Shown: positions 527 through 4,959 of the stretch, in pieces
Layout of the letters: each line of letters begins with the position of its first letter
How positions within the stretch are numbered: position 1 is the first letter of the stretch
Source: Escherichia phage alpha3
Length of the DNA stretch: 6,087 nt
Sequence record: NC_001330.1
Strand: one strand, 5' to 3'
Made by a program: the position numbers and the translations under genes
The notes under the pieces: generated by a model
Told to the model about the DNA's origin: nothing
The model's input: only the letters and a program-made list of their open reading frames with translations
Databases searched by the model: none

Positions 527-699
527 AATATTTTAGTTTGGTAGATGAACATTATGCTTACTGCCCTGATACAAGGATTTTGCACATTACTCGTAGTCGT
601 GTTTCTGACCCTCGGTATGAGCGTCGCTTTCTTACTGATGAGGAGCATTTTGCACTTTTGGATTGGTTAAAAAATCGCCCAACTTACATTAATTCTTGA
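523..699 (+). CDS. Hypothetical 58-aa protein with GTG start, H-A region ORF4
   Basis: GTG 523-525 overlaps the ORF3 stop (GTGA) and is preceded by GGAGG (513-517) with a 5-nt spacer. Product (M)KYFSLVDEHYAYCPDTRILHITRSRVSDPRYERRFLTDEEHFALLDWLKNRPTYINS. About 33/58 codons end in T. Stop TGA 697-699 lies inside the -35 hexamer of the gene A promoter. Not in the supplied ORF track. Confidence 0.4.
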   Translation: MKYFSLVDEHYAYCPDTRILHITRSRVSDPRYERRFLTDEEHFALLDWLKNRPTYINS

Positions 700-725
700 C
701 AGACCTTTAAAATACCCTCTATATT
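696..725 (+). promoter_or_regulatory. Sigma70-type promoter for gene A (pA analog)
   Basis: Perfect -35 TTGACA (696-701), 18-nt spacer, -10 TATATT (720-725), about 35 nt upstream of the A start codon. Position matches pA in the phiX174 H-A spacer. Predicted start site around 732-733. Confidence 0.6.
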
Positions 726-758: not shown

Positions 759-2243
759 ATGGCTACTGAAATCTTCTCTGATGTTGTTAAGTCTGTTTGG
801 TCGCACGCTACGGCTAAGCATGCTCATCTTCGTATGGCTGTTCAGGTTGATAATCGTAGTCGCCTCCTTTCTGACCTCGTTTATCAGTTGGAAAAACGCC
901 TTTCTGAAGAGACTCATTTGGATGATGAGACTCTTGCCATTTATGAATCTCAGACTGCCCTTCTGGAAGACCATATGGCACTGGTTCGGAAGTGTGCTGC
1001 CCAACTTGATAATAGTAACACTATAGACCACCGTACCCCTTTGGATGCCGAATGTGTTTTCCTGTTTGAAATGATTTGCCCGGGTGTTCGCTACGGTAAA
1101 ACGTTAAATTCTCTTTGGACTAAGTATGTTGTTCAATGGCCTGAGAAGTTAATCCGTCAGGAGTTAGACATGGTTAAGCCTTTATCCTTTAAGGATGAGG
1201 TTGCCAAGTACATGGAGAAGATGCAGGAAAAAACACGCAAAAATCGCATGACTCAGAAAGTTATTAATGAGATGCGTATTGCTCACCAAAAAGGCTGGTT
1301 CTTCGTATTTGATACGTTAACCCTTGCTGATGACCGTTTGCAGGCTTTTAATGAAAACCCCAATGCTCTTCGTGATTATTTCAGGACTGTTGGTCGAGCT
1401 GTTCTGCGCGCTGAAGGTCGTTCGGTCAAGGATTCCTACAACGACTGCTATCGCTATCTTTGTGTGCCGGAGTTTGGAGGTCAGCACGGCCGTCTTCATT
1501 GGCACGTTGTGCATATGGTGCGGACTCTTCCTTTGGGAAGTCATGACCCTAATTTCGGTCGCAAGGTACGTAATTATCGCCAGATTAACTCGTTCCGTGG
1601 CATGTGGCCTTATGGCTTCACGCAACCGATAGCTGTTCGCTATCAACATGACGCTTATTCCCGCAAAGGTTGGCTGTGGCCTGTTGACAAAACAGGAAAA
1701 GCAATGCAGAGTAAGCCGTATCAGGCGGTCGCATGGTATGTGACCAAGTATGTAGCCAAGCAATCTGACCAGCGTCAGAAAGCTATTACCGAGAGACAAA
1801 AGAAATGCAAGAATCCATTAATGGCAATCTGTCTGAAGAAAGAATTTCGGGTACGCAGCAGTCGGAAACTCGGAATGGAGCTCCCGTCAATGGCTCATCT
1901 GAGCAACAAGGTACTTCTGGAACTGAGCCGAATCAGCTTCGATTCCAGTCCTCTGTATCAGATAGTGAAAGAGAACGCCAAAAAGCAATTGACCTTGAAC
2001 ATCGGCGCGCTGCCTTTGCACGTCATTTTGGATGTGCGCCCGGAAGTGAGAAGCATGTTGAAAACTATTCGTCGTTTGATGAAAAAGACACCCGAGTTCA
2101 ATTGGCAGAGTTCTATCGCTTCAATGACGGTCACTTTAAAAAATGGGGATATTTCTGATGAAGCACGTCAATACATTATTGATGCAGGAATTACGCCTAC
2201 TGATTTGCGAGCTAAAGCGACTCAGACTTTCGGCGGTAAGTGA
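759..2243 (+). CDS. A: Replication initiation protein A (rolling-circle nickase/ligase), 494 aa
   Basis: Strong similarity to phiX174 protein A as recalled (FVFDTLTLADDRL, NPNALRDYFR, CVPEFG..GRLHWH, and the active-site tyrosine pair in YVTKYVAK). GAGGG ribosome-binding site 9 nt upstream. The in-frame stop at 708-710 excludes a longer N-terminus. Contains gene B, the (+) origin and the start of K. Confidence 0.93.
   Translation: MATEIFSDVVKSVWSHATAKHAHLRMAVQVDNRSRLLSDLVYQLEKRLSEETHLDDETLAIYESQTALLEDHMALVRKCAAQLDNSNTIDHRTPLDAECVFLFEMICPGVRYGKTLNSLWTKYVVQWPEKLIRQELDMVKPLSFKDEVAKYMEKMQEKTRKNRMTQKVINEMRIAHQKGWFFVFDTLTLADDRLQAFNENPNALRDYFRTVGRAVLRAEGRSVKDSYNDCYRYLCVPEFGGQHGRLHWHVVHMVRTLPLGSHDPNFGRKVRNYRQINSFRGMWPYGFTQPIAVRYQHDAYSRKGWLWPVDKTGKAMQSKPYQAVAWYVTKYVAKQSDQRQKAITERQKKCKNPLMAICLKKEFRVRSSRKLGMELPSMAHLSNKVLLELSRISFDSSPLYQIVKENAKKQLTLNIGALPLHVILDVRPEVRSMLKTIRRLMKKTPEFNWQSSIASMTVTLKNGDISDEARQYIIDAGITPTDLRAKATQTFGGK
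1002..1031 (+). other. Viral-strand (+) origin of rolling-circle replication, 30-bp protein A recognition/nick site
   Basis: CAACTTGATAATAGTAACACTATAGACCAC matches the phiX174 origin (CAACTTG/ATATTAATAACACTATAGACCAC as I recall it) apart from a few changes in the AT-rich centre. Predicted nick between G1008 and A1009. It encodes AQLDNSNTIDH of protein A. Confidence 0.8.
1221..2243 (+). CDS. A*: A* (internal in-frame restart product of gene A); start codon uncertain (ATG 1212, 1221 or 1248)
   Basis: By alignment the phiX174 A* start (MKSRRGFAIQ) falls on EKTRKNRMTQ here. The nearest in-frame ATG is 1221, with GGAG at 1214-1217 but only a 3-nt spacer. ATG 1248 has no ribosome-binding site. Confidence 0.3.
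   Translation: MQEKTRKNRMTQKVINEMRIAHQKGWFFVFDTLTLADDRLQAFNENPNALRDYFRTVGRAVLRAEGRSVKDSYNDCYRYLCVPEFGGQHGRLHWHVVHMVRTLPLGSHDPNFGRKVRNYRQINSFRGMWPYGFTQPIAVRYQHDAYSRKGWLWPVDKTGKAMQSKPYQAVAWYVTKYVAKQSDQRQKAITERQKKCKNPLMAICLKKEFRVRSSRKLGMELPSMAHLSNKVLLELSRISFDSSPLYQIVKENAKKQLTLNIGALPLHVILDVRPEVRSMLKTIRRLMKKTPEFNWQSSIASMTVTLKNGDISDEARQYIIDAGITPTDLRAKATQTFGGK
1805..2158 (+). CDS. B: Internal scaffolding protein B, 117 aa, encoded inside gene A in another frame
   Basis: Acidic/Q-rich N-terminus and a C-terminus QLAEFYRFNDGHFKKWGYF that matches phiX174 B (PAEFYRFHDAEVNTFGYF). Stop TGA 2156-2158 overlaps the K start. Confidence 0.9.
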   Translation: MQESINGNLSEERISGTQQSETRNGAPVNGSSEQQGTSGTEPNQLRFQSSVSDSERERQKAIDLEHRRAAFARHFGCAPGSEKHVENYSSFDEKDTRVQLAEFYRFNDGHFKKWGYF

Positions 2244-3035: not shown

Positions 3036-3054
3036 GGGCCCTTCGGGGCCTTTT
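3036..3054 (+). terminator. J-F intergenic hairpin with UUCG tetraloop plus T-run (TJ-like terminator / RNA stability element)
   Basis: GGCCC (3037-3041), TTCG loop, GGGCC (3046-3050), with a flanking G-U pair 3036/3051, then TTTT (3051-3054). Confidence 0.5.
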
Positions 3055-4367: not shown

Positions 4368-4383
4368 GGGCCTTCGGGCCTTT
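4368..4383 (+). terminator. F-G intergenic hairpin with UUCG tetraloop plus T-run (TF-like)
   Basis: GGCC (4369-4372), TTCG loop, GGCC (4377-4380), then TTT. Near-duplicate of the J-F module. Confidence 0.45.
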
Positions 4384-4395
4384 AAGGATTTATCT

Positions 4396-4959
4396 ATGTA
4401 TCAGAATTTTGTCACTAAGCATGATACTGCCATTCAGACTTCCCGTTTTTCTGTTACTGGCAATGTTATTCCTGCTGCTCCTACTGGTAATATTCCTGTC
4501 ATCAATGGTGGTAGTATTACCGCTGAGCGTGCTGTTGTTAATCTTTACGCTAATATGAATGTTAGCACTTCTTCTGATGGTTCTTTCATTGTTGCTATGA
4601 AGGTTGATACTTCTCCGACTGACCCTAATTGTGTCATCTCTGCTGGTGTTAACCTTAGTTTTGCTGGTACCTCATACCCGATTGTTGGTATTGTTCGTTT
4701 TGAGTCTGCTTCTGAACAGCCTACTTCTATTGCTGGTAGTGAAGTTGAGCATTACCCAATTGAAATGTCTGTTGGTTCTGGTGGTGTTTGTTCTGCTCGC
4801 GATTGTGCTACTGTTGATATTCATCCTCGTACTTCTGGTAATAATGTTTTTGTTGGTGTGATTTGTTCTAGCGCTAAATGGACCTCCGGTCGTGTGATTG
4901 GTACCATCGCTACGACTCAGGTTATTCATGAATACCAAGTCCTTCAGCCGCTTAAATAA
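4396..4959 (+). CDS. G: Major spike protein G, 187 aa
   Basis: The N-terminus [11 protein letters not shown] and the C-terminus (RFESAS...[12 protein letters not shown]...VLQPLK) are similar to phiX174/G4 G (MFQTFISRHN...RFESS...PRTPGNNVYVG...CLQPLK). AAGGA (4384-4388) with a 7-nt spacer. The track's upstream ATG 4366 lies in the hairpin. Confidence 0.92.

Follow-up and report, generated by a model that had tools for sequence, protein, structure and literature searches.

Does bacteriophage alpha3 make A*, the shortened product of its gene A and, if so, at which codon does the protein start? In-frame internal initiation within gene A is textbook knowledge for phiX174 and G4, and the 1992 alpha3 genome paper reportedly lists A* among the 11 genes common to alpha3, phiX174 and G4. 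As judged by the public records, annotators have already left the start open: an A* feature is missing from 22 of the 24 alphatrevirus records that we found, the two exceptions both being records of St-1. A literature search returned nothing on alpha3 A* and no experimental evidence, and a 15-billion-protein collection holds no exact entry for any of the five candidate A* proteins that we consider here. The first-pass annotation of this locus had described the A* start as ambiguous on the basis of three in-frame ATGs. The ambiguity itself persisted in every test that we applied – the start of alpha3 A* is not assignable from sequence, and none of the in-frame ATGs has a convincing ribosome-binding site – but the list of candidates was incomplete, as it missed the ATGs at 1170 and 1272 and the GAGG motif upstream of 1212.

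The window, i.e. the whole stretch of DNA that we analysed, is the 6,087-nt genome of alpha3, a coliphage of the Microviridae (Bullavirinae, Alphatrevirus). Positions 700–2,300 are 100% identical to DQ085810.2, and the annotation of this identical region gives the gene order as A, B nested in A, then K, C and D. Two features define the transcript and the protein:

Positions 696–725, plus strand: strong promoter-like sequence, a P_A-like sigma-70 promoter (TTGACA-18-TATATT).
Positions 759–2,243, plus strand: gene A, replication initiator of 494 aa, exact match to CAA42874.1/NP_039590.1/P25243, family PF05840.

The gene A product matches Pfam PF05840 (Phage_GPA) over residues 51–339 with an E-value of 2.1e-58, and also PF23343 (E = 2.9e-9). 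The HUH histidines H247 and H249 are invariant among the gene A proteins of a 27-sequence alignment, and conservation in it is 90% or higher for Y327, K330, Y331 and K334; the catalytic role of H247/H249 and Y327/Y331 we assume by carrying it over from phiX174. The P_A-like site is the sole promoter-like site between 650 and 1,900, and no internal promoter that could give a leaderless or short-leader A* mRNA was detected between 760 and 1,900. The template for any A* would thus be the gene A mRNA, as it is in phiX174.

Five ATGs in the zone are in the frame of gene A (1170, 1212, 1221, 1248 and 1272), three of which – 1212, 1221 and 1248 – had been correctly read as in-frame Met codons by the first-pass annotation. 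Together with the motifs around them, these are:

Positions 1,159–1,163, plus strand: AGGAG, Shine-Dalgarno (SD)-like, 6 nt 5′ of ATG 1170.
Positions 1,170–1,172, plus strand: ATG of M138, in frame with A, SD AGGAG with a 6-nt spacer, product of 357 aa.
Positions 1,197–1,200, plus strand: GAGG, part of the coding sequence for the conserved KDE(V) motif, 11 nt 5′ of ATG 1212.
Positions 1,212–1,214, plus strand: ATG of M152, in frame with A, GAGG 11 nt upstream, product of 343 aa.
Positions 1,214–1,217, plus strand: GGAG, followed by AAG and then by ATG 1221 (3-nt spacer).
Positions 1,221–1,223, plus strand: ATG of M155, in frame with A, 3 nt past GGAG, product of 340 aa.
Positions 1,224–1,247, plus strand: A-rich tract CAGGAAAAAACACGCAAAAATCGC, coding for QEKTRKNR, weakly structured by prediction.
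Positions 1,227–1,229, plus strand: GAA (E157), 9 nt past GGAG, the codon homologous to the A* initiator ATG of phiX174 and G4.
Positions 1,248–1,250, plus strand: ATG of M164, in frame with A, no SD, follows the A-rich tract.
Positions 1,272–1,274, plus strand: ATG of M172, in frame with A, no SD, the counterpart of the codon at which gpA* is annotated to begin in St-1 (1271 in that record).

Neither GTG nor TTG occurs in frame with A within 1,140–1,300. The peptide MVKPLSFKDEVAKY would be part of a short form that starts at 1170. The clustering of Met codons is itself only weakly unusual: in a protein with 17 internal Mets, finding 3 Mets within 13 codons anywhere has a probability of 0.57, and finding 5 within 35 codons anywhere has a probability of 0.21, with the values dropping to 0.009 and 0.007, respectively, when the segment is fixed beforehand at the site.

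Only ATG 1170 combines a canonical SD with canonical spacing. As a reference for spacing we sampled 70 genes of E. coli K-12, in which the distance from GGAG to the start is 4–11 nt with a mode of 6–7 nt, and none of 33 instances has a spacer of 3 nt; for any 4-mer SD core in the same sample, 3 of 78 are at 3 nt. The alpha3 genes with a recognisable SD have spacers of approximately 6–9 nt. Among the candidates, the spacer is 3 nt at 1221 and 11 nt at 1212, and while it is 6 nt at 1170, the SD there is not conserved. Therefore, while the GGAG 3 nt before 1221 is present exactly as first described, the support for 1221 that its mention implied is weak. At ATG 1248 and ATG 1272 we detected no 4-mer SD core within 20 nt upstream, in agreement with the initial description of 1248 as devoid of a ribosome-binding site.

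The relation of the zone to the established A* starts was examined using two independent MAFFT alignments of A proteins, one of 19 and one of 27 sequences. In both, the annotated A* Met of phiX174 (nt 4497, Met173) is found opposite E157 of alpha3 with no gaps nearby, just as the first-pass annotation had placed it, and the A* Met of G4 (698) occupies the same column. Alpha3 and all the alphatreviruses that we examined have GAA (E157) in this column, and a start codon is present there in none of them; the nearest alpha3 ATGs are located 2 and 5 codons upstream. The sequence of the A* site is ctGGAGGcctccactATG in phiX174 and ttGGAGGAGtcaactATG in G4, and the alpha3 GGAG (atG GAG aag) is codon-for-codon homologous to the SD elements of phiX174 (ctGGAGGcc) and G4 (ttGGAGGag). 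Alpha3 keeps the homologous SD core but has GAA instead of a start codon 9 nt downstream, and the nearest ATGs are either too close to GGAG (3 nt) or too far from the upstream GAGG (11 nt); the corresponding spacer in phiX174 is 8–9 nt, and the motif is GGAGG rather than GGAG. In G4 the SD is both strong and well spaced (GGAGGAG plus 6 nt), whereas alpha3 has no such element for the homologous position. The N-terminus of A* is MKSRRGF in both G4 and phiX174, and the homologous segment of alpha3 reads EKTRKNR. In other respects the systems are alike: the proteins belong to the same PF05840 family, the zone is likewise located at the start of the conserved core, phiX174 A* and the alpha3 candidates retain the HUH and tyrosine catalytic core as well as the C-terminus, and there is no separate promoter. 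The length of A* is 341 aa in phiX174 and G4 as judged by the annotated coordinates, compared with 340 aa for the alpha3 1221 product.

The closest relative with an A* annotation is St-1 (GQ149088/NC_012868), in which the protein is identical to that of alpha3 through the zone. The annotated St-1 gpA* start corresponds to alpha3 1272, the least plausible of the five candidates as regards SD, model score and the conserved residues that it would keep, and gpA* was assigned in St-1 by homology and not from protein evidence (PMC3324380). This sole public A* annotation in the alpha3 clade is probably wrong. More distant parallels exist: in Ff phages, gene X is produced from an internal in-frame start in the rolling-circle initiator gene II and yields a shorter replication-modulating protein. 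A similar arrangement is described for the Rep/Rep′ pair of plasmid pIGRK (PMC6854812). Both families are unrelated in sequence to gene A, and the analogy is one of mechanism only.

Conservation was assessed in 20 alphatrevirus DNAs (15 from GenBank, 3 from IMG/VR and 3 metagenome contigs, with the duplicate alpha3 copy removed). All five Mets are invariant in all 20, as well as in the 15 listed members of the 214-member 90% cluster. As alphatrevirus A proteins are at least 95% identical, with the next relatives at most 51% identical, we rejected Met conservation as a means of discriminating between the candidates. The SD-like motifs are more variable: CAGGAG precedes 1170 in 13 of the 20 alphatreviruses (CAAGAG in 6, CATGAG in St-1), GGAG precedes 1221 in 15 (GGAA in the other 5), and GAGG precedes 1212 in 19. 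Every one of the 20 genomes retains at least one of the SD cores at 1159 and 1214, a pattern behind which there are only 2–3 mutational events. Since the SD cores of 1170 and 1221 are each polymorphic, a synonymous-site signal was also rejected as evidence.

Beyond the alphatreviruses, an A* Met of the phiX type is present in 8 of 27 diverse Bullavirinae-like A proteins, all of them phiX/G4-like. Outside the alphatreviruses the column of M152 always contains L or V; the M138 column is hydrophobic elsewhere (Y/F/I/V/M), and so is the column of M172, which aligns with a Met of phiX174 and G4 (NAMRQAH) and contains Met in 13 of 27 sequences. Met is found at the M155 column in 6 of 27 lineages. 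Inspection of the DNA of the five distant ones among these revealed no SD upstream of this Met, and we therefore rejected its recurrence across lineages as support.

To score the candidates we used a simplified thermodynamic ribosome-binding site model of our own, whose terms are hybridisation to the anti-SD, a spacing penalty of the Salis type, the start codon and the cost of unfolding the region from −35 to +35. The model is crude – it mis-scores the true gene A start at 11 kcal/mol – and the rankings are indicative only:

ATG 1170: 3.3 kcal/mol in alpha3, mean of 6.1 over 20 alphatreviruses.
ATG 1212: 3.6 kcal/mol in alpha3, mean of 3.3 over 20 alphatreviruses.
ATG 1221: 4.7 kcal/mol in alpha3 without SD and 9.2 if GGAG is forced, mean of 3.7 over 20 alphatreviruses.
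ATG 1248: 7.6 kcal/mol in alpha3, mean of 6.9 over 20 alphatreviruses.
ATG 1272: 11.0 kcal/mol in alpha3, mean of 8.7 over 20 alphatreviruses.
Controls: 4.6 kcal/mol for phiX174 A* (a proven site) and 0.5 for G4 A*.

On the clade average 1212 and 1221 are the best, 1170 is third, and 1248 and 1272 are poor; GGAG adds nothing to ATG 1221. Compared with 151 other plus-strand ATGs the five candidates fall at the 23rd–91st percentile, and none is unusual. Nor does the model single out A, K, E or J, which are real genes with weak expression.

Predicted RNA accessibility sets 1221 apart. In all 20 alphatrevirus genomes the region from −15 to +12 is more open around this ATG than around the other four, with a mean log10 P(unpaired) of −2.5, followed by 1212 (−4.1), 1272 (−4.9), 1248 (−5.0) and 1170 (−7.3), the last being the most structured start region of all. 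In alpha3 the openness of ATG 1221 is in the top 2.4% of 165 plus-strand ATGs, beside the starts of genes B, F, G and J. However, when codons 130–185 were synonymously recoded, 81% of the recoded sequences were at least as open at 1221 as the real one, and this test detected no selection for openness at any of the candidates. The openness of 1221 thus stems from the Lys/Glu/Gln-rich peptide and not from codon choice.

No solved structure of an A homologue exists; we placed the candidates on an AlphaFold2 model of the A protein (mean pLDDT of 84). In the model, M138 is located in a loop (residues 136–146), and M152, M155, M164 and M172 all lie in one long helix (147–177) that runs into strand 181–189, the first of the catalytic core; the phiX174/G4 A* start falls midway along this helix. 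All five starts are upstream of strand 181–189, H247/H249 and Y327/Y331, so that each of the products would keep the core and the C-terminus and lose the N-terminal domain. Starts at M152 or M155 keep the invariant R160 and the near-invariant R167, as do the A* proteins of phiX174 and G4. The M164 product lacks R160, and the M172 product lacks both arginines and retains only 6 residues of the helix.

From the codons, motifs, homology, conservation and predicted accessibility described above we infer both that initiation may take place in this zone at all and which ATG it would use. The zone 1170–1272 would be the alpha3 counterpart of the internal in-frame initiation zone of microvirus gene A, which in phiX174 and G4 yields A*, the replication initiator minus its N-terminal third. 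In the model that we favour, at somewhat below an even chance, A*, if made, begins at ATG 1221 and/or ATG 1212. The 30S subunits would load on the P_A-driven gene A mRNA in the open A-rich stretch at approximately 1,206–1,247 and initiate at ATG 1221 (M155) and/or 1212 (M152), which are 9 nt apart, giving products of 340 and 343 aa. These would keep the last two thirds of helix 147–177, R160, H247/H249 and Y327/Y331, and would be the closest equivalents of phiX174/G4 A*. The homologous GGAG, the best clade-mean model scores, the openness of the region and the retention of R160 and R167, which only starts at or before M155 allow, all argue for this assignment. The non-canonical spacers, the null effect of GGAG in the model, the replacement of GGAG by GGAA in 5 of the 20 relatives and the origin of the openness in the encoded peptide argue against it.

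Initiation at ATG 1170 (M138), giving a 357-aa A* that starts in the linker before the long helix, is in our estimate unlikely. It would explain the 6-nt spacer of AGGAG, which is at the E. coli mode and within the range of the alpha3 gene starts, and M138, located in the predicted 136–146 loop, would be a natural domain boundary; furthermore, 1170 has the best model score both in alpha3 (3.3) and in Lilleven. However, the SD loses its first G in 7 of the 20 relatives, where the score worsens to 6.8–9.9, the start region is the most structured of the five, the product would exceed the A* of phiX/G4 by 16 aa, and the hydrophobic nature of the M138 column elsewhere suggests that this Met may be structural. 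Far less probable still is a start at ATG 1272 (M172), the codon chosen in St-1 GQ149088 and NC_012868, or at ATG 1248 (M164). The former aligns with a Met of phiX174 and G4 in a column that is Met in 13 of 27 sequences, and the latter follows the A-rich tract, but neither has an SD core within 20 nt, their mean model scores are the worst (8.7 and 6.9, respectively), and their products lose the invariant R160, with M172 losing R167 and most of helix 147–177 as well. The equivalent of M172 in phiX174 and G4 is internal to A* and is not its start, and the St-1 annotation, being homology-based and made without protein data (PMC3324380), adds little weight.

Finally, alphatreviruses may make no discrete A*, the phiX-type start having been innovated or retained only in the phiX174/G4 lineages. 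The ATGs would then be Mets of an amphipathic helix lying beside SD-like strings that arise from Glu and Gly codons. We regard this as rather doubtful, yet several observations are consistent with it: Met in the A* column is confined to the phiX/G4-like minority (8 of 27 A proteins), about a quarter of random ATGs are not surpassed by any of the alpha3 candidates, each SD is dispensable in some relatives, the Rokyta-series records annotate A* in G4-like and phiX-like phages but never in alpha3-like ones, and in phiX174 the protein is described as unessential (PMC13386984). Against it, the real low-expression genes A, K, E and J score no better, so that a weak site may still be used; one or both of the 1159 and 1214 SD cores are present in each of the 20 genomes, although only 2–3 mutational events underlie this; and the 1992 genome paper is said to count A* among the alpha3 genes.

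The start of alpha3 A* is a small and already recognised annotation gap, and what is at stake is chiefly the tidiness of annotation: the alpha3 records carry no A*. The first-pass annotation saw the importance of A* in the shut-off of host DNA synthesis, which is part of the picture but dated, as A* is described as unessential and as a factor that paces DNA synthesis with packaging and contributes to packaging fidelity (PMC13386984). Because A* is unessential in phiX174, the consequences are modest. Nevertheless, a mapped start or a proven absence would tell whether A* is common to all three classical microvirus clades, and its universality bears on the roles proposed for the protein, both in DNA packaging, for its pacing and fidelity, and in host replication shut-off. 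Of slight novelty is the restriction of the phiX-type start to the phiX/G4 lineages, so that A* may not be a universal protein. That this start is lineage-specific, with the alphatreviruses and most metagenomic Bullavirinae-like lineages lacking a phiX-type A*, we consider improbable. If true, alpha3, whose genome is the largest of the three classical clades, would pack its DNA in order either without A* or with a mix of weakly initiated isoforms; the description of A* as ‘strongly conserved’ would have to be qualified, and alpha3 would provide a natural A*-less system for studying the proposed role of the protein in packaging fidelity.

As judged by a simplified thermodynamic model of initiation (scores in kcal/mol, lower being better), the most favourable internal ATG in the gene A frame lies near the 3' end of the gene, at 2055–2057 (M433), where it is preceded by GGAAGTGAGAAGC. 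The site scores 0.49 kcal/mol, the top predicted value among internal A-frame ATGs and in the 6th percentile of all ATGs in the genome, and initiation here would yield a 62-aa C-terminal peptide within the A/B overlap; the favourable prediction at M433 is probably due to chance. The true gene A start, at 11 kcal/mol, is among the genome's worst by the same model, which is consistent with low expression of A. The start region, including its GAGGG Shine-Dalgarno motif, is sequestered by the hairpin CCCTCATAGTTTCACTACGAGGG (729–751).

Upstream of gene A, the H–A intergenic region (1–758) is long and contains open reading frames:

24–209, ORF of 61 aa
206–433, ORF of 75 aa
523–699, ORF of 58 aa

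Putative genes in the H–A region that are common to alpha3-like phages and missing from phiX174 have been described in the St-1 genome paper (PMC3324380). The window is the original alpha3 sequence (6087 nt), while DQ085810.2 is the resequenced version (6089 nt); gene A starts at 759 in the former and at 760 in the latter, and given this one-base shift, the two records must differ by one or more indels 5' of gene A.

Two GC-rich hairpins of almost the same sequence, each with a TTCG loop and followed by a T run, are located further downstream and resemble the hairpins that act between genes as terminators or stability elements:

3037–3054, hairpin GGGCCCTTCGGGGCC-TTTT, after gene J
4368–4383, hairpin GGGCCTTCGGGCC-TTT, after gene F

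A* is not the only product with inconsistent start sites inside the alpha3 clade, as the annotation of gene K shows. In the K frame an upstream ATG at 2143 opens a 58-aa ORF; the DQ085810.2 annotation places the K start at the equivalent of 2158, and the St-1 annotation uses the upstream ATG (St-1 position 2142).

Finally, in the gene A of L034, a distant Bullavirinae-like lineage (metagenome contig SRR12597834_315), residue 164 is encoded by an in-frame ATG located 8 nt downstream of a GAGG that arises from conserved KDE codons. In the 27-sequence alignment this ATG maps one codon 5' of the column of alpha3 M152 (the candidate A* start at 1212), and column 329 holds Met in 6 of the 27 lineages. 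In other lineages, an ATG of the L034 type could act as an alternative site of internal initiation.
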